32,000 nucleotides of DNA from an archaeon GW2011_AR10 (GCA_000830275.1 CP010424.1:900001-932000); one strand, 5' to 3'. Counted from the stretch's first letter, positions 238-31,560 are shown. Numbers and translations are program-made. The notes: generated by a model from the sequence alone, not told the origin.

Positions 238-353
238 AATAGTTGGGCAAATGGTCAAACAAACCACTTGGAACACTGCACTATGCCACACTATTGCAGA
301 CTACTAATAACAAAATATTAATAGTGGAACGCTGATTCTATTTAGGGGTTTTC

Positions 354-1346: not shown

Positions 1347-1355
1347 GTGTTTTGA

Positions 1356-7584: not shown

Positions 7585-8160
7585 TTGGTGAAGAAAAAGG
7601 TTTCAAAAGCAAAAACAAAACCAAGGAAAAGCAAGCGAGCAAAAAAGGCAGCAAAGCGGCTTGAGAGCACGCAGGAGAAGCCAGTGCAGCAGGCAAGCCA
7701 AATAACTGAACATGCTGGAGAAGAATCCGAGGGCGAAATTTTCAGGGTTAGGGGTTTTACCGAATCAGCCAAAAAAGTGGAACAGCTGAAAGGCGTTCCA
7801 GTTGAATTAAAAGAACACAAAATTGTAACGGCTTTTGACCAAGTGTATGATTTAGTCAAGAAAACAAAGCGGATTAAGCTTGGCTCAATTGCAAAGGAGC
7901 TGGGCTTGAGCAGGAAAGCCGTGGAGGACTGCACTAAAATCCTGGAGGACGAAAACTTGGTGGAAGTGGAGTACCCTGCAATTGGAGATCCATTGATTGA
8001 AATAGTTGAGTACAGGGAGTGGAAAAAACAGCACGATTTAGAGGAAGAAGAGACGAAAAAACTTGGAAAAGAAAAAGAAATCCTGAGAAAGCAGAAGGAA
8101 CAGGAATTGCAAAAGCTTAAGAAGAAAAAGTGGGTTCCTTTTATCGGGAAAAAGAAGTGA
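7585..8160 (+). CDS. Basic-tailed winged-helix (wHTH)-like protein, stand-alone homologue of the N-terminal extension of ATPase 29680..31560
   Basis: 191-aa ORF with a Lys/Arg-rich N-terminus (VKKKVSKAKTKPRKSKRAKKAAKR). The segment KIVTAFDQVYDLVKKTKRIKLGSIAKELGLSRKAVEDCTKILEDENLVEVEYP (~7819-7977) aligns by eye with IEELMTIVVQKKKASVKEIASSLGWSQKQVEEVAKVLEKQGVVDVVYP of the second ATPase. The tail is E/K-rich. Confidence 0.75.
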   Translation: MVKKKVSKAKTKPRKSKRAKKAAKRLESTQEKPVQQASQITEHAGEESEGEIFRVRGFTESAKKVEQLKGVPVELKEHKIVTAFDQVYDLVKKTKRIKLGSIAKELGLSRKAVEDCTKILEDENLVEVEYPAIGDPLIEIVEYREWKKQHDLEEEETKKLGKEKEILRKQKEQELQKLKKKKWVPFIGKKK

Positions 8161-16081: not shown

Positions 16082-16110
16082 GCCTTATTTATAACTAATT
16101 GTAATAATAA

Positions 16111-18900
16111 ATGGCAATGAAACTGCAAAAAGTATTGCTGATGCTGGTGTTCGCTCTGCTTTTTTCAGCAACTGCTTTTGCTGCTGAAACAGTTTACTGG
16201 CTTAGGGGCAATGCTTCCGATATCGCGCTTTACTTGGACACTGAGCACAGAATGATTTCAACTGCACCAGGCTCTGGCGCAACTGAAGCTGATTTCACCA
16301 CCACAACTGTTGCCGGAACAAATGATTGGGGGGTATGGCACTCTGACTCATTGGCGGAAAACTTCACCATAACAGGCACTGTTTATGTGTGGTTTTCCTA
16401 TCTTAATCTGAGCGGTGGAAGCGGCCAATTCCGCTGGACACTATGGGATTATGATGAGGAAAGCGGCTCAATAACGTACATTGCGCAGTCAGCGTGGGCT
16501 GACTTTCCCAGCGCAGCGCAGATTGAAACATTTAAGACTCTTGACAACAATTACACTGTTGCTGCAGGCAACAGGTTGGGCCTCAGGCTGGAGTATAATT
16601 CGGCAAGCAGCGGCAGCACTGCCTCGCTGAAGGTTGACTCTGCCAGCGCAGGCAGCAGCGTAACATGGAATGCTTCAACAGGCGGCACTTACACTGCCAG
16701 CAATGTGAGCAGGGCAGCAGCAATTCTCTTCAACCCCCAAACAGTAAGCATTTCTTGCAGTAGCGATTCTGACTGCGATGACAGCAACAGCTTGACTGGG
16801 GATGTATGCATTAATTCCGGCACGGCACAGTCTTTTTGCTCTAACCAGGGCTGCTATGTTGCATGCTACAGCAGCAGTGACTGCGATGACGGGGTTGCGG
16901 AAACAGTTGACACCTGCTTGGGTGCTGGAACCTGCTCTTCGAGGTGCCAGAACCTTGAGGAATTTTCAGCGCTGTGCAGCAGCAACTCTGACTGCGATGA
17001 TGGTAACCCGTTAACAATTGACTCATGCAATAACCCGGGAACAGCTTCTGCGGGGTGCTCAAACATTTCATGCACTCCAACGTGCAGCAGCAGCTCTGAC
17101 TGCGATGACAGCGACGCAAATACAACTGATGTTTGCGCTGGGGCAGGAAGGTGCACTGCAACCTGCTCTAATTTGGCAAGCTGCGGTAACGGCGTGTTAG
17201 ATTCAGGCGAAACCCCCTGCAATTGCCCAACGGATGCGGGCACATGCGAAGGCATTGTTGGAACCTGTTTGGAGAATGCATGCATTGGAACATCATGCGA
17301 GGTAACAATTGCTCTCGGCTGCTGTGGAAACAATTTCTGCGAGTTCAAGGAAGATTACAGCAACTGCGCGGTTGACTGCAAGCCGAAAGAAATTTCCATT
17401 GAGGTGACAGGAATAAGCGAGGAAAGCAGCTTTCTCCGCGGGGAAGAAGTTAAATTGGTTGCAGCGGTTGAAGCAGATGGATTGGAGGTAAGGGAAGCAA
17501 AGGTTTTTGCGAAAGGTTTTTTTGGGGAAATAGTTTTGTTCAACGACGGCAAGCACAGCGATGGGACAAGGAACGATAACTTGTATGGGAACAGTTTTTT
17601 TGTTGGTGAAACATTAAAGGAAGGCGCATACCCTGTCACAATTGAGGCAAGCTTTGCCGGCAGCACAGGAAAGACTGTTAAGAACCTTAATTTTAAGCCT
17701 GCACTTGAGGTTTCAATTGCAACTGACAGGGAAGCTTACGCTTTAGGCGACATAATCAGGGTTTCAGGCACTATAACAAAGAAAGGCAAAGGAATTGCAA
17801 GGGAAATTGACCTAAACATTTCAGTTGAAGGAAAGCTTGTAACTGAAGCTGATTTGAATTCCAAGGCTGATGGGAGCTATTCTTTTGAATACCATTCAAG
17901 CAATTTTGAGGATTCGGGAAGCTGGGAGATAAGCATTCTAACATCTGACGAGCAAGGCAACATTGGAGCTAAATCAAAGAATGTGGTGGTTGCAGAACAA
18001 GAAATAACTGCCTCGCTTTCACTTGAACTTGAGAGAGAAATCCTTGCAGCTTACGCAAGGAATGAAACCATTGCAATTGAAGTTAGGGTAAAGAACCTTG
18101 AAAACAAATTAGTGGAACAGGCATCAGTTCAGGCACTGATGCCTGATGGGGAGATTGTTTCATTCGCGGAAACAAGCACTGGCCTCTACGGGGCGGCCTA
18201 TTTGATTAAGCCTAACGTTCCACTCGGAGAGCAGGAAATAAAAGTCGTGGCCTCAAAGTTTGACGGCAACAATGTTATGGGCGGGAGCCTTGCATTCATC
18301 TTTGAAGTAAAAGCAATAAGCCTTATTGTTGAAGTGCTGGAGCCAACCAATAAAAGCGTTCAGGTTGGAGAGGACCTAAAAATAAGGGTTGCAGTTTCCT
18401 ATCCTGACAATGAGCCTGTTGTTGGTGCAGATTTCAATGCACTTGTGAACGGAAAAAAAGTTGAATTGAAGGCAGTTGAGAAAGGGGTCTATGAGGGAAC
18501 GCACTTCATTGACGAGTCAGAAGCACAGGGCATAAAAGCAGCAATTAGTTTTGATGACTCATTCGGGAACAAGGGCACAGCAGGGTTTGAAGTTGATGTA
18601 AGGGGCACATCCATTGTTTTTTACTTGAAAAAATATACTGTAAGCATTGCGCTTGCATTTCTTGCTGCAGCGCTTGCAGCAACCCTCATTGCACTCCAAG
18701 TAATGAACAGAAACAGGTATGCGGGCTTCAAGAGAAAGGAAAAGGAACTAATTGAAAAGCTGAAGAACATTCAGGTGCAGTATTTCAGGGAGGGTAGCCT
18801 CGACAGGAAAAATTACGACCAGTTAATGCAAAAATATGAGGCAGGCCTTGAAGAAGCCCGGAAAACCATTGCGCAGATGGAGAAGGAAAAGAAAAAGTGA
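16111..18900 (+). CDS. Large type I membrane surface protein (paralogue 1): Sec signal, YWLRG N-domain, four Cys-rich DCDD modules plus a CGNG module, Ig-like repeats, TM helix, SHOCT-like cytoplasmic tail
   Basis: 929-aa ORF. Signal MKLQKVLLMLVFALLFSATAFA|AE. Cys-rich region at 16756-17379, with tctgactgcgatga recurring about every 108-111 bp. Repeated ~90-100-aa beta-sandwich-like units. TM helix VSIALAFLAAALAATLIALQV (~18640-18705). Tail ..LIEKLKNIQVQYFREGSLDRKNYDQLMQKYEAGL. Confidence 0.9.
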   Translation: MAMKLQKVLLMLVFALLFSATAFAAETVYWLRGNASDIALYLDTEHRMISTAPGSGATEADFTTTTVAGTNDWGVWHSDSLAENFTITGTVYVWFSYLNLSGGSGQFRWTLWDYDEESGSITYIAQSAWADFPSAAQIETFKTLDNNYTVAAGNRLGLRLEYNSASSGSTASLKVDSASAGSSVTWNASTGGTYTASNVSRAAAILFNPQTVSISCSSDSDCDDSNSLTGDVCINSGTAQSFCSNQGCYVACYSSSDCDDGVAETVDTCLGAGTCSSRCQNLEEFSALCSSNSDCDDGNPLTIDSCNNPGTASAGCSNISCTPTCSSSSDCDDSDANTTDVCAGAGRCTATCSNLASCGNGVLDSGETPCNCPTDAGTCEGIVGTCLENACIGTSCEVTIALGCCGNNFCEFKEDYSNCAVDCKPKEISIEVTGISEESSFLRGEEVKLVAAVEADGLEVREAKVFAKGFFGEIVLFNDGKHSDGTRNDNLYGNSFFVGETLKEGAYPVTIEASFAGSTGKTVKNLNFKPALEVSIATDREAYALGDIIRVSGTITKKGKGIAREIDLNISVEGKLVTEADLNSKADGSYSFEYHSSNFEDSGSWEISILTSDEQGNIGAKSKNVVVAEQEITASLSLELEREILAAYARNETIAIEVRVKNLENKLVEQASVQALMPDGEIVSFAETSTGLYGAAYLIKPNVPLGEQEIKVVASKFDGNNVMGGSLAFIFEVKAISLIVEVLEPTNKSVQVGEDLKIRVAVSYPDNEPVVGADFNALVNGKKVELKAVEKGVYEGTHFIDESEAQGIKAAISFDDSFGNKGTAGFEVDVRGTSIVFYLKKYTVSIALAFLAAALAATLIALQVMNRNRYAGFKRKEKELIEKLKNIQVQYFREGSLDRKNYDQLMQKYEAGLEEARKTIAQMEKEKKK

Positions 18901-18904
18901 AAGA

Positions 18905-21430
18905 ATGAACAGAAGGATTTTATGTTGCGCAGTTTTTTTGCTGTTGGTTTCCTTGCTTGGAAACGTAAGCGCGACAAGTGCAATTTACTGGCTTAGGGGA
19001 AGTGACGTTGCTGCAAGGTTTGAGGGAACTGAAGCATACTTCATGTCTGGAACCCCGCCTAATGCATCCTCAACTGGAACAATAGTTGCTGCTGAAGTTT
19101 CAGGCGGAACACACGAGTTTGGAAGATGGTACTCTGTTGCTTTCCCGCAGGACTCAATTGTTTCAAACGAGGTTTTTTTTTGGGTTAACAAGCTTAGCCA
19201 AGGCAACGGCAACGCAAGGTTTCGCTTCACTTTGTATGAGTTTGTTGCGGACAGCCGGGAAAGCAGGGAAATTGTGCAGTCTGAATGGCTTGATTTTCCT
19301 GCAGGGGAAAAAGAATTCAAAGCAGAAATACTGGAACCATATGCTATCAGCAAGGGAAACAGGCTGAAGCTTGCGCTTGATTACAATGCTGTGGAAGCAG
19401 GCGGCGAAATAAGGCTTGTGCTGGATGAGTCAACAGGTTTTGGTGTTTCAGTGTGGAATGTTTCAAACAATCAGACTTACAGTGCTTCAGGTGTTGCCGG
19501 CACTGCAGCATTGCTTGTCAACTCCTGCACTGAAAGCGCAATTGCTTGCACAACTGATGCTTACTGTGATGATGGTTTGGCTTTAACCCTTGACAGGTGT
19601 GAGAACCCTGGAAGCTGTGCTGCTGAATGCGTTGCAGAAACATGCACGCCGGAGTGCACTTCAAATGCGCAGTGCGATGACAAAAGCTATTTAACAATTG
19701 ATGTTTGCGAGAACTCAGGAAAATGCGATGCTGCATGCAGCAACAATGAATGCAGTGTTTCATGCAGCTCTGACACCGAGTGCAGTGACGGTTTGCCAAG
19801 CACTTTGGACCAATGCATTAATGCAGGAACCTGTTTTGCTTTCTGCGAAAACAGGGTTTGCGTTGGAGAGGAATGTGATTCGGTTGCGAGAAACGAGTGC
19901 GGCAATGGCTTGTGCGAATTCAATGAGGCGTGCAGCGCAGACTGCAATGAAACAACAATTGAGCTTTTGGGGGTTAAGGAAGGAGAGTATTTTCTAAGAG
20001 GCGAGCAGATAATTATTGAGGCAAAGCCTGTTGGCTTTACTAAAGTGGTTGAGAGAGTTAATGCAGAGGGTTTTTTTGGGGAGCTTGAACTGAAGGACAA
20101 TGGAAGAAGCCCTGATAAGAAGGCCTCTGACGGAATTTACACTGCAGCTGTTGAAATCGCCAGCGAAACAATGCAAGGGGTGCACGCTGTCACGTTAACC
20201 TCTGAAAGCGCCTCTGAGAAGGCTGAGCTGGTGAAATACTATGTTGTGTGGCCTTTTCTTGAGGCAACCATTGATGTGCCGCTGCAGCTTTCAAGGGGGG
20301 GAGTGCTGCGAGTTTCAGGCACGCTAAACAAGAGGGGCGTTCCACTGGATGAACAGGTTTCCTTAAGAATTTCTTCTGCAGGAAAAACAATTGAGAGCTC
20401 TTCCGTTGAAGTAAACCAGTACGGCTGGTTTTTTTTCTCTTATCGGAGCAGCCAGCTAGACCCAATAGGAAAATGGGGTGTATCGGTTAGAGCTCTTGAC
20501 AAGGAAGGCAATGAAGCATTAATTGAGAAAGAGGTCATAGTTGTTTCCGGCCAAGCAAGCTCTGAAATAACAGTTGAGGTACTGGAACCAGCTGCAGGAG
20601 AAATTGAGCGTGGAGAAGAACTCATTGCAAGGGTAAAGGTTTTAGAGGAAGGGGAAGCAGTTGAAGGGGCAATTGTGAAAGCTTTAACCCCGCTTCGTGA
20701 AACCATTGCACTGAAAGAAGTGGCTGCAGGGGTTTACGAGGGAAAAATCTTTCTTTCTTTCCGGGAACCATTGGGAGAGCAGCGGCTCATTTTTATTGTT
20801 TCTGTTTCAGGTGAAAATGAAGCAAGGCAGGCTGAATCACAGCAGGAAATTGTTGTGCAGCCATCCAAATTGCTGGTTGGAGTTGATGTTGAAGAGGAGT
20901 CAATGAAAGCAGGGCAAAACGGAATTGCGAGAATCAGCATTAATTATGCAAACGGAGAGCCTGTTGAAAATGCAGTTGTTTCAGTTGAAGGGAACGGAAA
21001 AGAATTTGAGGTAAGGAGAGAAGGCCATGGATTTGTTGCCTCAAGGCAGCTGGGGGCAGATGAGAGAGGCACGATAAGCCTTGTCGTTGAAGCAATGGAC
21101 TCTTTTGGCAACGAAGGAAAAAAGGAGGTTGAAGCAGAGGTCGGGGCAGCACCGCTATTTGTTTTTTCTTGGGGAGCATTTCTTTTAGTGCTGGCAGTTT
21201 TGGCAGGAATTGTGCTGGCAATTTGGGCGAGCAGGTTTGTCTTTTTGAGTTTTAAGGGCAGGGAAGAGTTGGTTGAAAAAGAGCAGCTCTTGCTGAAAGA
21301 AATTTCTGAACTCCAGAAACGCTATTTCCAAAAACACTTGATGAAAAGCAAGGAATACTACGACTTAATGAATAAATACGAAAACGAGTTAAATAGTATA
21401 AGACAACAACTTAAAAGAGAGAAAAAATGA
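18905..21430 (+). CDS. Large type I membrane surface protein (paralogue 2)
   Basis: ATG at 18905, 5 nt after the upstream TGA; the track start 18836 overlaps the previous gene. Signal MNRRILCCAVFLLLVSLLGNVSA|TS, then AIYWLRG. Cys-rich region at 19526-19945. Ig-like repeats. TM helix ~21155-21230. Tail ..LLKEISELQKRYFQKHLMKSKEYYDLMNKYENEL. Confidence 0.9.
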   Translation: MNRRILCCAVFLLLVSLLGNVSATSAIYWLRGSDVAARFEGTEAYFMSGTPPNASSTGTIVAAEVSGGTHEFGRWYSVAFPQDSIVSNEVFFWVNKLSQGNGNARFRFTLYEFVADSRESREIVQSEWLDFPAGEKEFKAEILEPYAISKGNRLKLALDYNAVEAGGEIRLVLDESTGFGVSVWNVSNNQTYSASGVAGTAALLVNSCTESAIACTTDAYCDDGLALTLDRCENPGSCAAECVAETCTPECTSNAQCDDKSYLTIDVCENSGKCDAACSNNECSVSCSSDTECSDGLPSTLDQCINAGTCFAFCENRVCVGEECDSVARNECGNGLCEFNEACSADCNETTIELLGVKEGEYFLRGEQIIIEAKPVGFTKVVERVNAEGFFGELELKDNGRSPDKKASDGIYTAAVEIASETMQGVHAVTLTSESASEKAELVKYYVVWPFLEATIDVPLQLSRGGVLRVSGTLNKRGVPLDEQVSLRISSAGKTIESSSVEVNQYGWFFFSYRSSQLDPIGKWGVSVRALDKEGNEALIEKEVIVVSGQASSEITVEVLEPAAGEIERGEELIARVKVLEEGEAVEGAIVKALTPLRETIALKEVAAGVYEGKIFLSFREPLGEQRLIFIVSVSGENEARQAESQQEIVVQPSKLLVGVDVEEESMKAGQNGIARISINYANGEPVENAVVSVEGNGKEFEVRREGHGFVASRQLGADERGTISLVVEAMDSFGNEGKKEVEAEVGAAPLFVFSWGAFLLVLAVLAGIVLAIWASRFVFLSFKGREELVEKEQLLLKEISELQKRYFQKHLMKSKEYYDLMNKYENELNSIRQQLKREKK

Positions 21431-21589
21431 AAAAGTTTTGGTCAACTAGCCAATCAAGAATTAATAAGGGGTTGAACGCAGTGAAACCCCTTGATATACG
21501 CGCTGTCAACTGGCGCACTCAGTTGAAAGAGAGAAAAAATGAATCATGAAAATATTTATGAGGGTTCAAAGAACCCCCGAGGTATTCAG

Positions 21590-22825
21590 ATGTCAACTGG
21601 CTGTGGCAGTTGGAGGAATGCTTTCTTGCTTCTGGCTGTTCTGCTGCTGGCATCAGATGCCATTGCGCTTACTATTCTAACCGACAAGCTGTCTTATGTG
21701 AAAGGAGATGTCATAGCGATAAGCGGTGCATGCAGTGCGGGAAACCAGAACCTTGTCATCGGTTTAAATGGGGAGAAAAAAATTTTTGAGGAAGACATTG
21801 AGTGCTCTGAGGAAGAGGAATTCAGCTTTGATTATCAGTCAAGCTTTCTTGACCCTGAAGGAAACTGGGAGCTCAGGCTTTCAACTCCTGAGGAGTCAGC
21901 CAAAATAAATGTTGTAGTGGAAAACAAGAGGGAGGCCGGGTTTTATTTCATTAAAGTGCTTAACCCAACAATAGGCAAGTACAGCAGGGCAGAAAAACTG
22001 GATTTCAGCGTGGAAGTAACTGATGCAGGAACACTTGTAGCTGATGCAAGGGTAGTGCTTTGGGGGGTGAAAGGGGAAAGGATTGAGTTCAGGAATTCCG
22101 GCAGCGGAGTATACAATGTTGAATACACTGTGCCTGTTGATGCGCCTCTTGGAAGCTGGAAAGTGCTTTTGCTTGCTGAAACCGTGCGCGGGCAGGAGCG
22201 AATAGGGGGCAGAAACAACGAATTGGAAATGGTAATAGAAAAGGCACCGATTTCAATTGATGTGCTGGAGCCAAAAACAACCACCTTTGAGCTGGGAACA
22301 AGGATTCCTGTAAGGATTAATGCAACATACTTTAATGGAAGCGGGCTGCCGGAGGAAAGCATTGCAACAGCCAGGGTGGATGGGAAAGAGATAACGCTTT
22401 CAAGGATTTCTTCAAGCGAGTTTGCTGGCATGATTGAAATTGAGCAGAGTGGAAGTCTTGAGGTGGAGATAACAGTTGATGACCAGTCTGAAAACATTAC
22501 AACCAAAACATTGAACCTTGTTGCAGGGTGCTCGGTTACGTGCCTTATAACAAACTATGGCTTATACATAATTGCTGTTGTTTTGGTGGGCCTTGTTGCC
22601 TTCAAGCTGTTTGTTGGAAAGGTAAGCTATGGCTCAGAGCTCAGCAAACTGGAGAAGGAAAAGCAGAAAAACCTTGAATTAATTGTTTCACTGCAAAAAG
22701 AATACTTCAGCAAGGGAGTGATGCCTGCCAACTCATACAAGAAGAATCTGGCAGAATACAAGGCAAGGCTTGCTGAACTTGAAGAAAAAATAAGAGAGCT
22801 TAGGAAAAAGCAGGAAAACGAGTAA
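21590..22825 (+). CDS. Shorter type I membrane surface protein (paralogue 3; lacks the YWLRG and Cys-rich parts)
   Basis: ATG at 21590 sits 6 nt after GAGGT; ATG 21539 is an alternative. Signal MSTGCGSWRNAFLLLAVLLLASDAIA. Ig-like repeats. TM helix ~22558-22615. Tail ..LELIVSLQKEYFSKGVMPANSYKKNLAEYKARL. Confidence 0.85.
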   Translation: MSTGCGSWRNAFLLLAVLLLASDAIALTILTDKLSYVKGDVIAISGACSAGNQNLVIGLNGEKKIFEEDIECSEEEEFSFDYQSSFLDPEGNWELRLSTPEESAKINVVVENKREAGFYFIKVLNPTIGKYSRAEKLDFSVEVTDAGTLVADARVVLWGVKGERIEFRNSGSGVYNVEYTVPVDAPLGSWKVLLLAETVRGQERIGGRNNELEMVIEKAPISIDVLEPKTTTFELGTRIPVRINATYFNGSGLPEESIATARVDGKEITLSRISSSEFAGMIEIEQSGSLEVEITVDDQSENITTKTLNLVAGCSVTCLITNYGLYIIAVVLVGLVAFKLFVGKVSYGSELSKLEKEKQKNLELIVSLQKEYFSKGVMPANSYKKNLAEYKARLAELEEKIRELRKKQENE

Positions 22826-22831
22826 TGGCAC

Positions 22832-22846
22832 AAAATTTTTATATTT
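22832..22846 (+). promoter_or_regulatory. TATA-like box upstream of the 792-aa gene
   Basis: aaaatttttatattt lies 7 nt after the stop of the preceding gene and about 155 nt before ATG 23001. Confidence 0.3.
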
Positions 22847-23000
22847 CAAAAACAAACTCTATACGACGTCCTACCGCACTGAAGTGCGAGGTTTTCCAAT
22901 GGACGTCAATTTACAGTCAACGGAAAATGAAGCCGAGCAAAAACCCCGCCATAAATGGCGAGGCTTCATTTTGGGTTGGTGAATTGCTTTTGGTGCCTTG

Positions 23001-25376
23001 ATGGATGAAAAAGAAAAGCTGATAATGTCTTCAATCGGCAAGCTGCTGCAAGAAAAAGCTGAGGACGACGAAATAATTGATAGCCTGACAGGGCTTGGCT
23101 TAAGCGAGGAGGAAGCAAAACAGTACCTTGCGGAAGCAAAGAAGCGCATTGAGTCAGGGCAAGGAGAATATGCCTCAGAGGATGATTCGCTTGAAAAAAT
23201 AATCAGTGATTCCTCAAAAGAGCAAATGCAAGAAATTGGTGAAGGGCCAGAGGAAAGAGCAGGAGCTTTAGGGGGAACAGACCAAGGCGGTTTTGAAACT
23301 ACGCCTGAAGCAAAACCCATTCAAAGTGAAAAAACTGGTTTACTTGAAAGAATTCTTGGAAAAAAACCCGCAGCAAAAGCCGGAGAAAAAGAAAAAGCAG
23401 GAAAAGAAAAGGTTAAAGCGCCTGAAAAAGAAACCTTGGAAAAGCCTGGCTCTTTTTGGGAGGCAAAGCCAGGAAAATATTGGGGGGAAACAGAAAAGGC
23501 TTCCAAAAAAAAATCAGGGTTATTTGACTCGCTCAAAAAAATGGCCGGAAAAAAGAAGCAAGTTGGTGGTTTGGAGCCTGAGCTTTCAGGAAAGCGGGAG
23601 CCAGTAAAGGAGATAAGAGTTAAGTCTGCTCTTGAGGAAACGCTTGAAGGAGGCAAAGAAACAGAAGAAGCTGCAGGCAAATATGAGGAAACAGAAGAAA
23701 AGCCCAAACAGCAGAAGCCTGTTGAAGAAGATGGAACAATGCAGGAAAGCGTTTCTTCGGTTGGAGAAGAGCTCGGTGCAGGCCTTCTGGAACTGGAAGA
23801 GAAAACAAAAACAGGCAGGGAAAAACGCACACCCTCAAAACAGGGGAAGGAAAAAAAGGAAACCGGAAAAACACTGAGAGCACAAGAGCAAAAAGCAAGG
23901 GAAACAGAGAAGCCTGCCGCAGTTCAGGTTAGGCCAAGGCCAAGGGGAAAGCTGACTCTGCTCATTATCCCAAACAGGGAGTACTCGAGGAGCATCGGCG
24001 TTATTGCAAAGTATTTGTCTGACAATTACTCCAAAGTCGCATACATAAGCTTAAACGAGTTGTATGATACGCTTCAAAGCAATCTTAAGGCAAACAAAGT
24101 TGATGTTGACCGAATGATTTTTGTTGACGCAATAACTAGGACCGCGCAAACCAGGATACAGAAAACAAGCAACTGCACTTTTGTTACCTCCCCGAATGAC
24201 TTGGTGGAATTAAGCCTTGCAATTACTGATGTGCTGAACAAAGGGAATGTTGATGCACTGCTTTTTGATTCGCTTTCAACGCTGCTGATTTACGAGAAAG
24301 AAAAAACTGCAACCAAATTTATCCATTCACTTATCGGAAAAATAAAGGCTGTTGGTGGTGACTCGGTTTTAACTGCACTTGAAGGGGACGCAAACAGAGA
24401 AGCAATCAGGAACCTGCAAATGTTTGTGGATGAAGTTCTTACAATGAGCCAGTTCCAGATAAACAACCTGCAGCAGGGCTACGATGAGCTTGATGTCAAG
24501 CAAGAAGAGCCAGCAGAGCCCATAGGAAAGGCATTGATGGGAGCACTTAAGGAGCTTGAAATTTCAAGGCCTGCAGTGAAAGCTGTTGCGAAAAGAGGGA
24601 ACGAAAAAGAAATCATTGGCCAGCTTGGCGAGCTGAAAAAACAGTTAAGCGGCATTGAAGCACGGCCTTCGCATGAAAATGAATTCAAAAAGTTTGAGGA
24701 GCAGCTGAAAAAACTTGAAGCAAGGCCAAAGCCAGTTGAAGCTGCGCCAGCGATACAGAAAGAGCTAAGGGAGCTGAAAAAGCAGCTGAAAAAAATTCAG
24801 GGAAGACCAAAAGTAAAAGTTATTGATTCGAGGAAAGCAGTCAGGGAGGCCCTCAAAAAAATTGAGGAACGGCTGGCAAAAATTAAGCCAAAACAGCAGA
24901 AGCAACAGCCAGTGAACCAGCTTAAGAAAGAGTTGAGAAAGCTTGCTGAAAAAATTCGCGGGATTTCAGGAAAGGGGGAGAAAGAGAAAACATCAAAGAT
25001 TATAGAGAAGGAATGGGGAAAGCTGGAGAAAAGGTTCAAAAAAATCGAAAAACAGCCTGGTTTCCACAAAGAACTTAAGGGGCTGTCTGAAAAGATAGGA
25101 AAAATCAAGGCAAAACCGTTGCCTAAAAAGTACCTCAAAAAAATTGAGGAGCGATTTGACCGAATGGAGAAAAAAATTGGAAAAGACGATAAAATGCACC
25201 GCGCGGAAATGAAAAAACAGCAGAGAATCCAGGAGACGAAAGACAAAGCGGAAAAGCAGGTTAAGGCCCTTGAAAGAAAGCTCTCACTGCTTAACAAAAG
25301 CTATTCTCTGGGGGTAATAAGCGAGGGAGCTTATCTAAAAGACAAATCGCGCATTGAAAAGCTGCTGAAAAAATAG
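23001..25376 (+). CDS. Degenerate KaiC/RecA-like protein (no Walker A) with shared N-terminal helical domain, E/K-rich linker, K-rich ..RP repeats and SHOCT-like C-terminus
   Basis: ATG at 23001 (MDEKEKLIM..). The N-domain ..IIDSLTGLGLSEEEAKQYLAEAKK parallels ..VVGSLKDIGLSEEEAHSLLEKAKG of 25922..27100. The RecA-like core KLTLLIIPNREYSRSIG...DALLFDSLSTLL...SVLTALEG has PNREYSRS where the paralogue has GGAGTGKT (23951-23999). C-terminus LERKLSLLNKSYSLGVISEGAYLKDKSRIEKLLKK. Confidence 0.85.
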   Translation: MDEKEKLIMSSIGKLLQEKAEDDEIIDSLTGLGLSEEEAKQYLAEAKKRIESGQGEYASEDDSLEKIISDSSKEQMQEIGEGPEERAGALGGTDQGGFETTPEAKPIQSEKTGLLERILGKKPAAKAGEKEKAGKEKVKAPEKETLEKPGSFWEAKPGKYWGETEKASKKKSGLFDSLKKMAGKKKQVGGLEPELSGKREPVKEIRVKSALEETLEGGKETEEAAGKYEETEEKPKQQKPVEEDGTMQESVSSVGEELGAGLLELEEKTKTGREKRTPSKQGKEKKETGKTLRAQEQKARETEKPAAVQVRPRPRGKLTLLIIPNREYSRSIGVIAKYLSDNYSKVAYISLNELYDTLQSNLKANKVDVDRMIFVDAITRTAQTRIQKTSNCTFVTSPNDLVELSLAITDVLNKGNVDALLFDSLSTLLIYEKEKTATKFIHSLIGKIKAVGGDSVLTALEGDANREAIRNLQMFVDEVLTMSQFQINNLQQGYDELDVKQEEPAEPIGKALMGALKELEISRPAVKAVAKRGNEKEIIGQLGELKKQLSGIEARPSHENEFKKFEEQLKKLEARPKPVEAAPAIQKELRELKKQLKKIQGRPKVKVIDSRKAVREALKKIEERLAKIKPKQQKQQPVNQLKKELRKLAEKIRGISGKGEKEKTSKIIEKEWGKLEKRFKKIEKQPGFHKELKGLSEKIGKIKAKPLPKKYLKKIEERFDRMEKKIGKDDKMHRAEMKKQQRIQETKDKAEKQVKALERKLSLLNKSYSLGVISEGAYLKDKSRIEKLLKK

Positions 25377-25446
25377 ATTCGAGGTGCAGAAAACTTTATA
25401 AACGATAATAACAATACTTAATAAGTTAATTTAGCCAAGGAACAAC

Positions 25447-25854
25447 ATGAAGAAAAAAAGGAAAGCAACAGGCAAAAGCAAGGCAAAGAGAGCAGGCAGA
25501 GGAAATAGAAAAGCCCCGAGAAAAGCCAAAAGGAAAACTGTTAAAGTGGCTTCTGCAAGGGAAAGCGTGAAGAAGCATGGCCTGCTTGAAAACGCTTTAA
25601 GGGAAATAGAGAAAGAGCTTGACTCTCTGCGCGGACAAAAGCTTGACACTGAAAAAGAACTAGGTGGGCTTGCATCCAGTATTTCCTACACACAAAACAA
25701 GGAGCTGGAGCTTAAAAACACGGTACAGAAGCTTGTGGCAAAAGAGGAGCAGCTGAACCTCAAAAGGGAAAGGCTACAAGAGCAGATCCAAAAAGTAAAG
25801 GAAAAGATTACAAAGATAAGCCAGCTTGAAGCTGAAATGGAAGAAATTTCTTAA
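25447..25854 (+). CDS. Basic-tailed coiled-coil protein (hypothetical)
   Basis: 135-aa ORF. N-terminus MKKKRKATGKSKAKRAGRGNRKAPRKAKRK, followed by heptad-like E/K/L-rich sequence to the end. Confidence 0.6.
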   Translation: MKKKRKATGKSKAKRAGRGNRKAPRKAKRKTVKVASARESVKKHGLLENALREIEKELDSLRGQKLDTEKELGGLASSISYTQNKELELKNTVQKLVAKEEQLNLKRERLQEQIQKVKEKITKISQLEAEMEEIS

Positions 25855-25921
25855 GCAACTAGTTTCTATAAATCCAATTTTTGTTCAAATACATAAACAG
25901 TTTGCTTTACTTCTTCACCCT

Positions 25922-27100
25922 TTATTCTTCTTCCCTGAATATTTCTTGGTTGATGTAAATCTCAAAGCCGTGGTCAGTAATAGTGTATGGGGTGATTTTT
26001 CTGACATGGGAGGAACTCCTCAACTTCAGGATTTCAAGCGCTCTCTGCCTTGTATTGTGAATCTGAATATTGTAGAAAACCACAACCCCGTCTGCCAGAA
26101 ACTCTTCAATGCCTGAACGAGAGTATGTTCTTGGGCTCTGCTCCGTTTCACCGAAAACAAGGTTGCATGAATTGAACCTCTCCAGGGTTTCAAAAAGGTG
26201 GCGCAAGTACTGCCTGTAACCCTGCTCGTTTTCCATGAACGCAATGGAAAGAGCGGAAAGTGAATCAACGACAACCCTGTCTGGCTTGAAAGGCAAGTCA
26301 AACTGGAAAGGCAAGTCGAATTCCTCAAACTCGATGTAGAGTCCGCCCCTCTCCTTGGTTAACATTGCTTCAACTGCCCTTGCAATTGTTAGGGGATCAA
26401 TTTTAATGATTGCAAGGTTTTGCTCTTCCTCCATTTTTTCTAAATCCCAGTTAAAGTTTTCCATCATGTTCTCTTTTATCTTTGAAGCTGTTTCCTCCAA
26501 GGTAATGTACAGGCCTTTTTCTCCGTTCAATGCGCCATTGTAAATGCTCTGCATTCCAAAAGTTGTTTTGCCTGTTCCAGCTCCACCAGAAAGAAGTATT
26601 GTGTCGCCGCGCTTGAGACCGCTTCTTCCAATCAACTTGTCAAAGTCTGAAACCCTCACCGGAAGAACCTCGCGGAAAACTACTTTGCCAGACCTTTTTT
26701 GGAGCATTGCGGATTCCTTAATGCGCCAATCTCCACTGCTCTTATTTGTTGCTTCAAACGAGCCCCTGCCGGATGTTGAAGCCCTTTCAGCACCAAGAAT
26801 GCCGCTAATCATTGCCTGGGAGGAAGCTGGGCTGGCATCTCTTCTGCCAAAGAATTCATCATAAGAAGAACTCCAAAACTCGTTGCCTGAACTGCTTGGT
26901 TGCTCTTTTCGGTGTTCAGCTGAAGGTTTTTTGCTTGACCCTTCAGGAGTGGAAGAGCCCTTGGCCTTTTCGAGCAGGGAATGCGCTTCCTCCTCGCTTA
27001 AGCCAATGTCCTTCAAACTACCCACAACATCGTTATCGGAGAGTTTGTCTGCAACCATTCTTTTGGCTGCGTCAAGCAGCCTCTGCTTTTTTGCGTCCAT
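25922..27100 (-). CDS. KaiC/RecA-superfamily ATPase (FlaH/ArlH-like) with N-terminal helical domain and Ser-rich linker
   Basis: ATG at 27100 (MDAKKQRLL..); the track start is GTG 27109. Walker A GGAGTGKTT at 26561-26587 (minus strand). Walker B-like RVVVDSLSAL. C-terminal ..ALEILKLRSSSHVRKITPYTITDHGFEI is typical of KaiC-like single-domain ATPases. Confidence 0.93.
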   Translation of the reverse strand: MDAKKQRLLDAAKRMVADKLSDNDVVGSLKDIGLSEEEAHSLLEKAKGSSTPEGSSKKPSAEHRKEQPSSSGNEFWSSSYDEFFGRRDASPASSQAMISGILGAERASTSGRGSFEATNKSSGDWRIKESAMLQKRSGKVVFREVLPVRVSDFDKLIGRSGLKRGDTILLSGGAGTGKTTFGMQSIYNGALNGEKGLYITLEETASKIKENMMENFNWDLEKMEEEQNLAIIKIDPLTIARAVEAMLTKERGGLYIEFEEFDLPFQFDLPFKPDRVVVDSLSALSIAFMENEQGYRQYLRHLFETLERFNSCNLVFGETEQSPRTYSRSGIEEFLADGVVVFYNIQIHNTRQRALEILKLRSSSHVRKITPYTITDHGFEIYINQEIFREEE

Positions 27101-27184: not shown

Positions 27185-27658
27185 TTAAGTGCACACGCCC
27201 ACAAGCGGCCTGATTCCAACTTGGGTTAGGTTAAGAGTGCTGCCGCCAACTGTTCTGCTGTAAGAAATGTTCACATCATAACTGTATGGGTCGGTGGAGT
27301 TACCGCAATCAATTGCTGTTGCGTTTACGGCGCTCTTCTCTGATCCGCCAGTAAACTCTGTGTCAGTGGTGGCAAGAGAAGTTGAGGTAAGCCTTATATC
27401 GGTTAAAGTCAACTTGTTGGATGTCTGGTTTCTGAGAACAATTATTGGTGCAGTGCTGCCGTCAGAGAACACCTCATACTGTGTCATTGCAAAAGGTGAA
27501 GTGCTTGCCCAATAAGCCTGGCTCTGGCTTTGCGTAATGCCTGTTCCAACTCCAGGAATCCAGCCAAGAACACCCACCACAATCAATGCAATTACAATTA
27601 TTACTGCAAGAATTATTAGGTACTCGGTTGTACCCTGGCCCTTCCTGTGAAGCATCAT
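27185..27658 (-). CDS. Archaeal type IV pilin (class III signal peptide), candidate pilin of module 2
   Basis: 157-aa ORF. N-terminus MMLHRKG|QGTTEYLIILAVIIVIALIVVGVLGW. Thr/Ser-rich body. A TATA-like acatttaaatacc lies upstream (~27706-27718, minus strand). Confidence 0.88.
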   Translation of the reverse strand: MMLHRKGQGTTEYLIILAVIIVIALIVVGVLGWIPGVGTGITQSQSQAYWASTSPFAMTQYEVFSDGSTAPIIVLRNQTSNKLTLTDIRLTSTSLATTDTEFTGGSEKSAVNATAIDCGNSTDPYSYDVNISYSRTVGGSTLNLTQVGIRPLVGVCT

Positions 27659-27776
27659 TAAACCTCTGGAATCTGAAAAAATAAATTCTACTTAATAAGA
27701 TGCATTTAGGTATTTAAATGTTTGCCTGTCATTCCTGCAACCATGACTTACGTGCAAAGCCCGATCACTGTTTTTT

Positions 27777-28796
27777 TTAGGCAGTTAATTTTAGGATTCC
27801 TGAAAGCACGGCTGTTGAAACAAAAAACAAGGCAAATGAAACAATAACCATTAATGGAAAATAGCGCAGGCCAAGCTTTTCCTTGCCGGTTTCAAGCAAC
27901 CCGATGAAAAGGCTCCCCATAAAAGAATTCACTGCCAGAAGAAAGAATGCAATCAAACGCATGAAGTCGGTGGAAACCAGCAGCTCGCTTGAAAGAAAAC
28001 CTATTTGCCCCACTGCAGTTGGAGCCACTGTAATCTGGCTCTGCACTTGGTTAATCATTTCAAGGAAAAGAACTGAAACGCTCAAAAGAAGCGGGGTTGC
28101 AACGAGCACAACGAAAACAACAAACAAAACATACATCCGAGTGCTTGACTGGAGCTCCTTTTTCAGTGCCTGGTTTCTGCGCAGGTCATTGGAAGTGGTT
28201 TCAAGAAGCTTTGCAATATGCCCGCCAGAACGGATTGACTGCGCAAAGAAGGAAACTGTTTCGGATAGGTTGCGGGAGCGAATCCTAATGCTTAACTCCC
28301 TCAGCGCATGAGTGAAGGACTCAGTCCCCAAACTCTTTGAAGTTGCAATCTTCACTTCCTCCGCCAAGGGGCCGAACTCGTCCATTGAACTCTGCCTGAA
28401 AGCAGAAAAGGGAGTCATCCCGGCGCGGATATTCGAAGCAACCAGCGAAAGAAAATCCGGGAGGATTTCTTCAACACGCTGGCTTCTTCCCTCAATTACG
28501 TAAAACAAGTGAAGGTAAAAAATCGTAATGGCCAGAACTGAAAAAAGAACAAACAAAAACAAGGAAAGAAAAATTACATGGTATGGTTCAAGAAAAACAA
28601 CTTGGAAAAAGTTTAGAAAAGTTAATGGAAGCAGGAAACCAATCAAACCGAAAAGCACCGAGAAAAGAATTTTCTTGCCAAGCCAGATGTCAAAGTCTTC
28701 GCTGATTCCGGCAAACTCTAGCATCGGGTAAATTCTCTCTTTCCTGAACTCTTTTGGAGTTAGCTCAGCCAAGGAATTGCTTATCCTCTCAAACAC
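27777..28796 (-). CDS. FlaJ/TadC-like polytopic membrane protein (single T2SS-F-type domain), paralogue of 10561..11562
   Basis: 339-aa ORF. GTG start overlaps the upstream TAG by 1 nt. Domain LPDFLSLVASNIRAGMTPFSAFRQSS..GPLAEEVKIATSKSLGTESFTHAL..FFAQSIRSGGHIAKLLETTSNDL. Confidence 0.9.
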   Translation of the reverse strand: MFERISNSLAELTPKEFRKERIYPMLEFAGISEDFDIWLGKKILFSVLFGLIGFLLPLTFLNFFQVVFLEPYHVIFLSLFLFVLFSVLAITIFYLHLFYVIEGRSQRVEEILPDFLSLVASNIRAGMTPFSAFRQSSMDEFGPLAEEVKIATSKSLGTESFTHALRELSIRIRSRNLSETVSFFAQSIRSGGHIAKLLETTSNDLRRNQALKKELQSSTRMYVLFVVFVVLVATPLLLSVSVLFLEMINQVQSQITVAPTAVGQIGFLSSELLVSTDFMRLIAFFLLAVNSFMGSLFIGLLETGKEKLGLRYFPLMVIVSFALFFVSTAVLSGILKLTA

Positions 28797-29683
28797 TACA
28801 AGTACACCTTCGGAATTCTTGTCCTAACAAAGCCAATCAAAACAACTTGGAAGACAATCCCAAGCCCAACAATCAGTGAAATAATTTCTGGCCCAATAGA
28901 GCTGCCGCCCAAAGCCGAAAGAATCACAAAAAAAGTTATGCCGAGAGTCGGAATTGCAGCTGCAAACAGCAAGTAAAGCAGAATCCAGAGATTTAATTCA
29001 GCAGCATAGTTTTTTATTGCACGCTGCTGCGCTGCAGTAAGCGAGTCCACAACCGTGTTAAGCGCGCCTGACAGAGAGGCACCGCTTCTGAGTGAGGAGA
29101 GAAGCTGCCACGAGGTTTTCTTCAGGTACTCTGACTTGGTTTTCAGCGCAAGCTTTTCCAAGGCCCTTGTTTCAGGTGTGCCAGAATTTATATCCCTGAT
29201 AACCCCCTTGAATTCCTCCGATACAACTCCATAATTTGATTTTGAAACATTAATCATAGCATCATAAAGGCTTATTCCTGATGTAACCTGAATCAGCATG
29301 CTCTTCACCGCAAAGGTTAGGCTCTGGTCAATGCCTGAAGCAACCTGGTAGGAAATAATTCTCGGGTACACTAAATGCAGAAAGAAAAAAATTGCGAAAA
29401 AAACCGCGCCGATTAAAACTGAAAGCAGAATGTTCTCCTGCAAAAATTCCGAGTCCTTCAAATAGAGAACACTGTTGAAGAAAAGAAAGCCAACCAAGCC
29501 GTAAACCAAGGCTGAAAGCAATGCAGCAACAAGGTAATGCTCGGCTTCGATTTCTAGCTCGGCTTTTTTCAGGTCATACTTTAAGCCGTAAAAAATTTTT
29601 GCAAGGAAACCTCCAAGCCAAGGAAGCCTTTGGCCAATGCTCTTTGAGAACCCAATCGAAAAAAGGAGAAAGCGAACCCTCAT
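28796..29683 (-). CDS. FlaJ/TadB-like polytopic membrane protein (single T2SS-F-type domain), paralogue of 9661..10560
   Basis: 295-aa ORF. ATGA overlap with the ATPase stop (29680-29683). Domain FAVKSMLIQVTSGISLYDAMINVSKSNYGVVSEEFKGVIRDINSGTPETRALEKLA..LLSSLRSGASLSGALNTVVDSL. Confidence 0.85.
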   Translation of the reverse strand: MRVRFLLFSIGFSKSIGQRLPWLGGFLAKIFYGLKYDLKKAELEIEAEHYLVAALLSALVYGLVGFLFFNSVLYLKDSEFLQENILLSVLIGAVFFAIFFFLHLVYPRIISYQVASGIDQSLTFAVKSMLIQVTSGISLYDAMINVSKSNYGVVSEEFKGVIRDINSGTPETRALEKLALKTKSEYLKKTSWQLLSSLRSGASLSGALNTVVDSLTAAQQRAIKNYAAELNLWILLYLLFAAAIPTLGITFFVILSALGGSSIGPEIISLIVGLGIVFQVVLIGFVRTRIPKVYL

Positions 29684-31560
29684 TGCTCCAACCCCAGAAA
29701 CCTTTTAGGGGAAACGCCCTTTTCAGCTGCAGCCATGATTGAATCAGGCTCAGAGTAAAAAAGCCTCATGATGGCTCCGACTTGATCCATTTCACTAATC
29801 CTGTTGTCGAGCATCCACTCCAGAATCTTTGCCCTCGAAAAAACATCCTCGCCAATTTCCTTCTGCGTTAAACCAGTGTGGAGGTTAAGGTTCTGGATAA
29901 GCTTTGAAGGCTCATTCACCTTATCCCAGTCATCTTCCCTCGGCCTCCAGCGGTAAATCGTGTTAACAGCCAGCTGCTCTGCCGAAACCCCTGATTCAAG
30001 CTCGGCTATTTCATAGGTGCGCCTAAGGTTTGTCCTGCGGTCACGGAACTGCACCAAAATTAGGTCAAGTGCTTCAACCTCAAGCGGTGGCACATTTATC
30101 GGCGGCTCAATAAGGCGCCTTAAAACCTGCTGGCCTGAATCAGCGTGAATGGTGGAGTAAACAGAGTGGCCTGTGTGCATTGCCTCAAAGAGAACCTCTG
30201 CTTCTCTCTGCCTGCGCATTTCTCCGAGAATGATTCTGTCCGGGCGCATCCTCAAAGAAGAGTGGAGCAGGTCAAGCATTCCAACTTCTCCTAAACCCTC
30301 TGGGTTAGGGTTCCTTGTTGTGAGAGGCACCCAGTTCCAGCGCATGTAGGATGGAAGCATTATTTCCCTTACGTCCTCAATTGAAATAATCCTGTGATAG
30401 GCCGGAATAAAAGCGCACAAAGAATTTAGGGTTGAAGTTTTACCTGAAGCAGTGCCGCCTGCAATCAGCACGCTCATCTCGTAATGCATTGCCATCCAAA
30501 GCAGTGCAGCCATTTCAATGCTCATAGTGTGCTTTTCGCCAATGAAATCAACAATAGTCCAAGGCCTCCTAGAGAAACGCCTGATTGTGATTGTGTTGCC
30601 GGAAGAGGAAACCGGGAAAAGGGTTGCATTAACCCTGTCGCCGGTAATAAGGTGTGCATCAAGAATCGGGTTAAGCGTTGTTATCTCTCTCCCAACCTTT
30701 CTTCCAATCTGTGAAGCAAAGTTTGCAATTTTTTCCTCTGATTCAAGGTAAATGTTGGAGCTTGCCCATCCGAAAACACGGTGGTAAACCGTTACAGGAG
30801 TTTTGCTTGAATTGATTGCAATCTCTTCCAAAGAATTGTCTGCCATCAGGAGCTCGATTCTGCCCAAACCATACATTGAATGGAGGAGCCTTCCGGCAAG
30901 GAGGTTAAGGTTTTTCTCGTCAATGCCCGGAATATGCGCTTGGAGCTCTTGCTTTGAAACATTGAAAAACTTTTCCTTCAGCTGGATGCTTTTCTTTTCA
31001 TCCGTTATTTCAGCCAGCTCAACAGGAATTTTTTCCGCAATCTCTTCCCTCAGCTGCTCCAAAAAAGCGTGGGTGTATGGCCCGACAAAAGGAGTCTTAA
31101 TCTCGTAAATAGTGCTGTTTTCCTTCCTTGACTTGAAGAGCGTGGCATGCACCGGAATAAAATCAGCAAAGAAATCGTATTGCTGCAAAACAAGGCCGTC
31201 AACTTTTTCCTGCGGTTCAATCTGCAGCTCTTTAAGCAGAACAACTGAAGGGCTTGAAATGACCGAGGCAGGGTAAACCACGTCAACAACGCCTTGCTTT
31301 TCCAAAACCTTTGCAACTTCCTCAACCTGCTTCTGGCTCCAACCAAGAGATGATGCAATTTCCTTAACCGATGCCTTCTTTTTCTGTACAACTATTGTCA
31401 TCAGTTCTTCAATGCCAGTTTTGATGGGAGCGTAATCAAAAGCAGGTTTCGAGTGTTCTTTTTTTAAGTGCTGTCCTTGCGCTGGCTTCTCAAGATTAAA
31501 AGCCCACTTTGCAGGAGACTTCATGGCATTGTCAAATTCAGCAACTGAATCATTCGGCAT
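29680..31560 (-). CDS. Type II/IV secretion-family assembly ATPase (FlaI/PilB/TadA-like) with fused N-terminal wHTH-like extension
   Basis: 626-aa ORF. Walker A GGTASGKT, SIEDVRE, RPDRIILGEMR, HTGHSVYSTIHA. Collinear with 8165..9673, with well over half of core positions identical by eye. The extra ~120 N-terminal residues contain the wHTH-like segment (~31271-31413). Confidence 0.95.
   Translation of the reverse strand: MPNDSVAEFDNAMKSPAKWAFNLEKPAQGQHLKKEHSKPAFDYAPIKTGIEELMTIVVQKKKASVKEIASSLGWSQKQVEEVAKVLEKQGVVDVVYPASVISSPSVVLLKELQIEPQEKVDGLVLQQYDFFADFIPVHATLFKSRKENSTIYEIKTPFVGPYTHAFLEQLREEIAEKIPVELAEITDEKKSIQLKEKFFNVSKQELQAHIPGIDEKNLNLLAGRLLHSMYGLGRIELLMADNSLEEIAINSSKTPVTVYHRVFGWASSNIYLESEEKIANFASQIGRKVGREITTLNPILDAHLITGDRVNATLFPVSSSGNTITIRRFSRRPWTIVDFIGEKHTMSIEMAALLWMAMHYEMSVLIAGGTASGKTSTLNSLCAFIPAYHRIISIEDVREIMLPSYMRWNWVPLTTRNPNPEGLGEVGMLDLLHSSLRMRPDRIILGEMRRQREAEVLFEAMHTGHSVYSTIHADSGQQVLRRLIEPPINVPPLEVEALDLILVQFRDRRTNLRRTYEIAELESGVSAEQLAVNTIYRWRPREDDWDKVNEPSKLIQNLNLHTGLTQKEIGEDVFSRAKILEWMLDNRISEMDQVGAIMRLFYSEPDSIMAAAEKGVSPKRFLGLEQ

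Follow-up and report, generated by a model that had tools for sequence, protein, structure and literature searches.

Archaeal KaiC-like ATPases and their inactivated homologues were reportedly proposed by Makarova, Galperin and Koonin in 2017 to serve as signal-transduction hubs, and as the pairing of a KaiC-like ATPase with an inactivated homologue has already been proposed in archaea, the kind of system considered here is known. KaiC-family ATPases are also associated with archaeal type IV pilus (T4P) loci (PMC4858521), Nanohaloarchaeota have pilus clusters with two kaiC copies (PMC9563170), and binding between ArlH and ArlI depends on nucleotide and on phosphorylation state. Here, we analyze a pair of this kind in a 32,000-nucleotide (nt) stretch from the archaeon GW2011_AR10 (GCA_000830275.1, CP010424.1:900001-932000), the whole of which is called the window. 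In this pair, gene A, encoding a pseudo-KaiC, converges on gene B, encoding a KaiC-family ATPase, next to genes for surface proteins that share a cytoplasmic tail motif. As the nearest relatives of both A and B are proteins of Candidatus Iainarchaeum / Diapherotrites metagenome-assembled genomes (MAGs), the source is, judged by these relatives, a DPANN archaeon. The two genes and the motifs by which they were classified are located as follows, with lengths in amino acids (aa).

23001-25376, plus strand: A, pseudo-KaiC, 791 aa from ATG, assigned from the open reading frame, a Pfam DUF7504 match of 39.8 bits and 25 homologues (DPANN MAGs)
23949-24473, plus strand: RecA/KaiC-like core of A, without nucleotide-binding loop, from an AlphaFold2 (AF2) model (predicted local distance difference test, pLDDT, 87.9) and Foldseek
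23970-23993, plus strand: PNREYSRS at the Walker A site of A, three residues shorter than a P-loop and with no GK[ST]; family consensus LLIIPNKEY
24048-24059, plus strand: SLNE of A, facing TLEE of B, with the invariant Asn353 in place of the first catalytic Glu
24264-24287, plus strand: FDSLSTLL, retained Walker-B-like strand of A; D424, S425, S427 and T428 invariant
25922-27100, minus strand: B, single-domain KaiC-family ATPase with N-terminal module and linker, 392 aa, assigned from Pfam KaiC, KaiC in the PDB and a homologue alignment
26561-26587, minus strand: Walker A of B, GGAGTGKTT, invariant in 31 homologues
26492-26497, minus strand: catalytic Glu-Glu of B, E205 and E206 (numbered from the GTG start), invariant in the same 31
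26249-26275, minus strand: Walker B of B, VVVDSLSAL, likewise invariant in the 31

Two start codons are available to each gene, TTG 22998 or ATG 23001 for A (plus strand, stop ending at 25376) and GTG 27109 or ATG 27100 for B (minus strand, ending at 25922). The ATG is preferred in both cases because the resulting lengths of 791 and 392 aa equal those of database proteins P0001 and P0026 and because homologues begin with 'MD.KK'. Upon re-checking open reading frames and motifs, every coordinate given in an initial annotation of the window was reproduced.

The strength of the association between A and B is apparent from the genomes of relatives. All open reading frames of 47 related loci were scanned with hidden Markov models (HMMs) made in this analysis for the cores of A and B, the N-terminal domain and the tail motif, and counts of 23 refer to the non-redundant Iainarchaeota-type loci with enough sequence beyond A. 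A B-type KaiC lies within 2.5 kb of A, on the opposite strand and convergent, in all 23, and this pairing holds while identity among A proteins drops to 30-45%. The two genes are adjacent and convergent wherever there is room for both, and from this arrangement it follows that A and B are almost certainly linked in function.

By its motifs and profiles, B is a complete KaiC-type ATPase and is neither an ArlH/FlaH nor a clock KaiC. Its match to Pfam KaiC (PF06745) reaches 165.2 bits against a threshold of 26.6 and covers aa 152-387, and the top match among solved structures is KaiC (CI domain, E 5.5e-49), followed by the single-domain archaeal proteins PH0186 and PH0284. Walker A (GGxGTGKTT), the Glu pair of LEE, DSLSAL and a C-terminal cluster of K362, R364 and H368 are invariant in the 31 homologues of B, and the intact P-loop and DSLSAL Walker B region previously reported for the 392-aa protein are where they were placed. 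The accompanying FlaH-like label could not be upheld, as B scores only 24 bits with the NCBIfam model for ArlH (NF052589, cut-off 215) and 17-22 bits with those for FlaH (cut-offs 194-215), compared with 100-129 bits for the NCBIfam models of KaiC. Neither does B match the two-domain circadian KaiC, being a single domain that scores 101 bits with TIGR02655 (cut-off 546) and 129 bits with NF006799 (cut-off 408). Homology to KaiC CI, PH0284 and PH0186 points to a hexameric ring with probable ATPase/autokinase activity.

For A, sequence comparison reaches Pfam DUF7504 (PF24336, 39.8 bits, cut-off 27), a match that is also precomputed for most A homologues, and falls slightly below the cut-off for Pfam KaiC (24 bits). 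As a search of the A sequence against solved structures gave no significant match (FlaH, E 0.73), the fold had to come from modelling. An AF2 model of aa 310-506, built with 24 homologues as input, has a pLDDT of 87.9, and Foldseek places it closest to the RecA-superfamily ATPase PH0284 (template-modelling score, TM, 0.69; E 8e-7), then to FlaH (4yds), KaiC, PH0186 and RecA. In profile-profile alignment, the A and B families are collinear through the N-terminal domain and linker as far as Walker B (probability 97.3, E 2e-11), with 'LLIIPNKE---Y' of A facing 'LLSGGCGTGKTTF' of B and 'FDSLSTL' facing 'VDSLSAL'. The collinear RecA-like core that had been ascribed to A is thus confirmed by alignment, model and structure search. 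Limited to the cores, similarity between A and B in hhalign is weak (E 2.8e-4), and consequently the fold placement of A leans mainly on the structure model and Pfam.

The P-loop is what A lacks. PNREYSRS occupies its position, inside the interval 23951-23999 named by the initial annotation, and FDSLSTLL is kept at 24264-24287 as had been described. A regular expression for GxxxxGK[ST] finds nothing throughout A and nothing conserved across 25 family members. Alignments also show that the core of A stops about 45 residues before that of B, so that the segment with the invariant K362, R364 and H368 of B is missing. Two findings that would have spoken against the pseudo-ATPase assignment, a core outside the RecA/KaiC fold and a cryptic P-loop elsewhere in the protein, were looked for, and neither was seen. 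A is best described as a pseudo-ATPase with a RecA/KaiC fold in which the P-loop has been lost without a substitute, and it is predicted from the model and motifs not to bind nucleotide.

Loss of the P-loop is ancient and family-wide. The PN.EY loop is present in 24/24 A homologues, and the A core with the same loop also occurs as stand-alone genes (about 180-230 aa, Pfam DUF7090/DUF7504) in Iainarchaeota, Woesearchaeota and Aenigmatarchaeota. With an HMM of the A core, the short genes score between 1e-14 and 1e-31, and B is not matched at 1e-3. Profile similarity thus identifies A as a member of the inactive DUF7504/DUF7090 lineage with added parts. Derivation of A from B by recent decay of a copy was considered and rejected, given these HMM results and the core-only hhalign E of 2.8e-4. 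Of the earlier description as an active ATPase with a Walker-A-less paralogue, the pairing of a KaiC-type ATPase with a P-loop-less homologue therefore stands, whereas A is not simply the inactivated paralogue of B. In most Iainarchaeota loci, one short pseudo-KaiC gene lies 0-4 nt behind another KaiC gene, itself shorter than B (about 240 aa), and this operon-type pair indicates that KaiC and pseudo-KaiC form a recurring two-gene unit.

The constant neighbours of the pair are surface proteins, encoded in the window as follows.

16111-18900, plus strand: surface protein 1, 929 aa, with signal peptide, Cys-rich repeats, Ig-like domains and a C-terminal transmembrane helix
18730-18879, plus strand: cytoplasmic tail motif of surface protein 1
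18836-21430, plus strand: surface protein 2, 864 aa, laid out as surface protein 1, with the tail motif at 21275-21418
21539-22825, plus strand: surface protein 3, 428 aa, with Ig-like domains, a transmembrane helix and the tail motif at 22652-22801

Two to three genes for tail-motif surface proteins are found in 20/23 loci, and the contigs of the other three end too early. Across loci, these proteins have a signal peptide, Ig-like and Cys-rich domains, one C-terminal transmembrane helix and a cytoplasmic tail of 50-65 aa, for which the motif consensus is [IL]K.[IL]Q..YF..G.M....Y...M..YE..L. The genes are upstream of A in most loci and upstream of B in L004, L010, L025 and L027, and from this position on the B side it can be seen that they stay with the pair when it is inverted. 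Outside Iainarchaeota, tail-motif membrane proteins adjoin a B-like KaiC in two Aenigmatarchaeota loci (L040, L042), a Woesearchaeota MAG (L035) and an 'archaeon' MAG (L037), and there they carry one to three copies of the motif after the transmembrane segment. The three surface proteins at 16111-22825 were absent from the initial annotation, constant neighbours though they are.

A second link between A and B is the beginning of each protein, where the following parts were located.

23001-23150, plus strand: N-terminal three-helix module of A, from BLASTP, HMM and AF2 (helices H4-18, H23-32 and H37-51)
26957-27100, minus strand: N-terminal three-helix module of B, from BLASTP and HMM cross-matches
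23337-23366, plus strand: A linker motif GLLERILGKK, amphipathic; motif in 9/24 A-family and 13/24 B-family linkers
23454-23483, plus strand: A linker motif FWEAKPGKYW, aromatic; motif in 13/24 A-family and 12/24 B-family linkers
26849-26878, minus strand: B linker motif FWSSSYDEFF, aromatic, from the linker motif search

The N-termini of A and B are 35% identical over 48 aa (BLASTP pairwise E 2e-6). An HMM built from A-family N-termini alone finds the B of the window at E 5e-13 and the B-type partner in 6/7 loci (all but L003) at 1e-9 to 5e-19, and AF2 models the module as a three-helix bundle (pLDDT 88). Identity, cross-matches and model all bear out the common helical module with which both proteins were said to start. 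The low-complexity linkers noted after it are likewise present in A and B, though they contain short motifs common to both families, the aromatic sFW[DE]s....[FY][FW] and/or the amphipathic G[FL][FL]xx[LF]FxKK. The latter resembles the membrane-targeting helix of MinD and may associate with the membrane. A Foldseek search of the three-helix model against the PDB returned nothing below E 1; a UBA/RuvA-domain-III-like fold was accordingly left unsupported, the sole hint being Pfam RuvA_C at E 0.058.

The N-terminal domain is also found well beyond the pair. A word-indexed search with the profile of about 50 residues returned one fragment, the profile being too short for significance against 5.8 billion sequences, whereas an exhaustive profile search of representative clusters found the domain in 239 of them, nearly always at residues 1-50. 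Most matches of at least 250 aa are neither A nor B (examples are P0161, P0166, P0168, P0175, P0179 and P0212). These have no Pfam match and are coiled-coil proteins, 400-900 aa long, with a conserved C-terminal '...ELDAFEKxFAxEMGL' followed by a basic (poly-Lys) tail, and a Pfam scan of ten of the other carriers gave no informative families. No carrier of the ELDAFEKxFAxEMGL coiled-coil type is encoded in the window. Conversely, the domain is missing from some A homologues (L004, L007 and all short forms) and from one B (L003).

In order, A consists of the three-helix module, the motif-bearing linker, the P-loop-less RecA/KaiC-like core, eight helical repeats and a SHOCT-like tail. The last two parts and the small protein encoded between A and B are given here.

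24624-25199, plus strand: eight repeats of A, about 20-27 aa each, LxxLxxKIxxIExxP, from a pattern search
25239-25373, plus strand: C-terminal tail of A, LERKLSLLNKSYSLGVISEGAYLKDKSRIEKLLKK, conserved across the family and weakly like the three surface-protein tails
25447-25854, plus strand: small protein, 135 aa, coiled coil after a Lys/Arg-rich N-terminus, present between A and B in 14/23 related loci

The tail of A aligns with the surface-protein tail motif in the same register (hhalign P 0.0023, a score reached by 1/200 column shuffles), which is suggestive of a relationship between the two kinds of tail. SHOCT domains have a conserved Gly, two short helices and a C-terminal position (PMC3581485), traits that the tails here resemble by eye only. 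An assignment to SHOCT was nevertheless dropped, since Pfam (PF09851) gives no match in the tails of A and the surface proteins up to E 10, and the A tail weakly matches GvpG instead (E 0.024). The repeat region between core and tail varies in length among homologues, and the tail motif is duplicated in some of them (L001, aa 698-731 and 737-780). The 135-aa protein, which matches no family, is extremely basic in its first 45 residues (24 Lys/Arg); it could bind nucleic acid or acidic lipid and act as the output of the module.

When these results are placed together, it can be hypothesized that A and B together make up a KaiC-type module specific to DPANN, which works on the cytoplasmic side of the membrane and is coupled to the tails of the surface proteins. 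This is the account that we favor, tentatively and with a confidence that stops just short of calling it probable. The surface proteins, probable adhesins or envelope proteins, would span the membrane once with their tails toward the module. B would be its enzyme, an ATP-driven switch that, by homology, hydrolyzes ATP as a hexamer and probably autophosphorylates. A would be a non-catalytic partner or scaffold, as canonical nucleotide binding is not expected of a protein with no P-loop, with the first catalytic Glu lost and with the last approximately 45 residues of the B core missing. Its KaiC-like core may contact B, with the repeat region and the conserved C-terminal tail contacting other components. 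The three-helix domain and the aromatic and amphipathic linker motifs might then bring A and B to one place, most likely the membrane or the tails of envelope proteins. Physical contact of A with B and of the module with the tails of the surface proteins is inferred, as is the direction of signalling.

A more specific proposal can be made, in which the three-helix domain serves specifically to dock onto LQxxYFxxGxMxxxxY, the conserved juxtamembrane motif in the tails of DPANN surface proteins. We consider this improbable and put it forward for what it would imply. If it were true, a KaiC ATPase would be drawn by the tails to the inside of the envelope, along with its dead partner and a family of long coiled-coil proteins. 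Contact of an adhesin with a host or surface could then be coupled through an integrin-like outside-inside link to an ATP-driven switch, and possibly to pili, in episymbiotic archaea.

Several observations weigh against a membrane module formed by A and B. Outside Iainarchaeota, the A-like gene is often alone. The genes CoaD, CoaE, PGM, the surface proteins, A, B, the second KaiC/pseudo-KaiC pair, DHH and PEP synthase are all syntenic, and with the whole region conserved in order, adjacency may partly reflect inheritance within the lineage and not selection for linkage. The likeness between tails is weak, and Pfam gives no SHOCT domain. As the N-terminal domain is also carried by many unrelated coiled-coil proteins, its sharing alone is no proof that A meets B. 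Finally, short A forms (177-320 aa) without N-terminal domain and tail are still paired with B, which implies that both parts are dispensable for the role of the core.

The alternative that survives best is the one originally suggested for this locus, that B with its inactive partner A binds and regulates a FlaI-like pilus ATPase in the manner of ArlH and ArlI. The pilus genes concerned are listed below.

27185-31560, minus strand: T4P cassette 2, co-directional with B, a variable neighbour of the pair
29680-31560, minus strand: FlaI-like ATPase of cassette 2, 626 aa, with fused winged helix-turn-helix (wHTH)
28796-29683 and 27777-28796, minus strand: TadB/C-like T2SSF genes of cassette 2
27185-27658, minus strand: pilin of cassette 2
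8165-11562, plus strand: T4P cassette 1, a FlaI-like ATPase and two T2SSF genes, 11 kb upstream of A and part of a wider conserved gene order

Precedent for such control exists in the KaiC genes of T4P loci (PMC4858521, PMC9563170) and in ArlH-ArlI binding. Cassette 2, in the order minor pilins, T2SSE (FlaI-like ATPase), T2SSF, T2SSF and pilin, runs co-directionally into B with a gap of 84 nt. In L027, whose B is 56% identical to that of the window, the orthologous operon runs co-directionally into A, with the surface genes on the B side. The position of the pair directly downstream of the cassette at 27185-31560 is thus correct for the window and does not hold as a conserved context, L027 being the only other example (2/23 loci). 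Elsewhere, B is followed by the second KaiC/pseudo-KaiC operon, SOD, glycosyltransferases or a DHH gene. A further FlaI-like cassette, of the cassette 1 type, lies 8-13 kb from A in five loci (the window, L003, L008, relatives of L027, and L034), which also favors pilus control; with CoaD, CoaE and PGM between it and the pair, this cassette belongs to the broadly syntenic region.

Other features of B and its surroundings count against regulation of the motor. B is far closer to KaiC than to ArlH (24 bits against a cut-off of 215), and the nearer and constant neighbours of the pair are surface proteins, not motors. No arl operon surrounds B, as the neighbouring ATPases score 274-286 bits against a FlaI cut-off of 550, the platform protein is split into two T2SSF genes, and no other arl genes are present. 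A T-rich run follows the pilin stop, and a TATA-like TTTTTAAA box lies about 30 nt before the ATG of B, a combination that, by consensus alone, suggests a promoter belonging to B. Cotranscription of B with the pilus operon is held unlikely on the same consensus. Control of a pilus motor by the pair is possible and makes a live rival, albeit a rather unlikely one that is not the best-supported reading.

It could instead be argued that A and B are independent, with the N-terminal domain a tag that DPANN proteins use generally for localisation or as an adaptor, and with their adjacency a matter of inherited gene order. In keeping with this, the 239 representative clusters with the domain are mostly neither A nor B, the housekeeping genes around the pair are equally syntenic, and convergent genes are not co-transcribed. 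An inherited order sits poorly, however, with an adjacency that persists where the pair has been inverted and where the genes on either side have changed, and that is retained at 30-45% identity of A. It also leaves aside the separate KaiC and pseudo-KaiC operons in the same genomes, and we regard independence as unlikely. That A is not dead and binds a nucleotide or other phosphate ligand through a non-canonical site is very improbable, for although its core is strongly conserved and Asp424 of the Walker-B-like strand and Glu354 are invariant or nearly so, the loop is three residues short and has neither Lys nor Thr, no P-loop is seen in the rest of A, and every family member has Asn at the position of the first catalytic Glu.

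Coupling of the pair to surface proteins thus remains the reading that we prefer, and some further features of these regions are recorded here. The 175-nt gap before A (22826-23000) has a TTTTTATATTT box directly after the stop of the 428-aa gene and a perfect palindrome, CGCCATAAATGGCG, followed by a T run; it may hold a terminator or a promoter, or else form a small structured element. The second KaiC operon of related genomes (L001 14372-17004; L003 16505-19232; L005 6347-8939; L006 12611-15250) encodes a KaiC of about 240 aa and a pseudo-KaiC of about 200-230 aa. The next gene, on the opposite strand, encodes a coiled-coil protein of 425-450 aa with a MinD-like amphipathic start (MGFLDKLFGKDKKK), and this set is not in the window. 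A TnpB/Cas12f-like gene (15096-16196) lies between the A-B pair and the second operon in L003, and a DHH (RecJ/Cdc45-like) gene with an intein bearing a LAGLIDADG domain is found in L005 (9060-11978).

The pilus cassettes also show some variation in architecture. The 191-aa winged-helix protein encoded ahead of the ATPase of cassette 1 (7585-8160) matches the wHTH at the N-terminus of the 626-aa ATPase of cassette 2 (29680-31560), this domain being a separate gene in cassette 1 and fused in cassette 2. Upstream of cassette 1, at positions 1-7129 of the window, several small proteins encoded in a row have class III (pilin-type) signal peptides, and a protein of 944 aa combines a vWA-like DxSxS motif with repeated segments that resemble beta-propellers. 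Together, these are probably the minor pilins and adhesins of pilus 1.

DPANN archaea rely on contact with other cells, and to our knowledge, almost nothing is known about how the surface proteins of these contact-dependent organisms signal to the cytoplasm. The locus presents a conserved, testable module of an active KaiC ATPase, an anciently inactive partner, a small basic coiled-coil protein and two to three tail-bearing surface proteins. It defines three sequence elements open to searches and mutagenesis, namely the three-helix domain at the N-terminus, the motifs of the linkers and that of the tails, and it provides a first context for DUF7504 and DUF7090, two Pfam families without function. 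Should the pair act on pili or adhesins, the idea of KaiC signalling hubs would extend to the cell envelope of symbiotic archaea. Full-text literature searches returned no description of an N-terminal domain combined with linker motifs in both partners, of an inactive partner extended in this way, of the small coiled-coil protein between A and B or of tail-bearing surface proteins as constant neighbours.

Comparison with known systems places the locus more precisely. With cyanobacterial KaiC, B shares Walker A, the Glu-Glu pair and Walker B, with the CI domain as best match; it differs in having one domain and not two, in scoring 101 bits against the circ_KaiC cut-off of 546, and in the absence of a KaiA or KaiB gene nearby. 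ArlH (FlaH) has the same RecA/KaiC fold, ranks (as 4yds) near the top of the structures that match A, and sets a precedent for docking of a KaiC-like protein on a FlaI-type ATPase. Unlike the situation here, ArlH keeps its Walker A, which A does not have, B falls below the ArlH cut-off, and no archaellum genes are present. As in the T4P-linked KaiC systems (Makarova, Koonin and Albers 2016, PMC4858521; PMC9563170), KaiC genes can lie beside archaeal T4P operons, including those of DPANN; such adjacency is the exception here (2/23), and a split into active and inactive partners is undescribed in PMC4858521 and PMC9563170. The A core passes DUF7504 (PF24336), and its short relatives match DUF7090 (PF23365) or DUF7504, families to which Pfam assigns no function and to which A adds an N-terminal domain, linker, repeats and tail.

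The proposed archaeal KaiC hubs share with this locus a single-domain KaiC ATPase beside an inactivated homologue and a context of cell-surface and signalling genes. What distinguishes the pair described here is the three-helix N-terminal domain and linker motifs on both partners, the long repeats and tail of the inactive partner, and the constant presence of surface proteins with a tail motif as neighbours.

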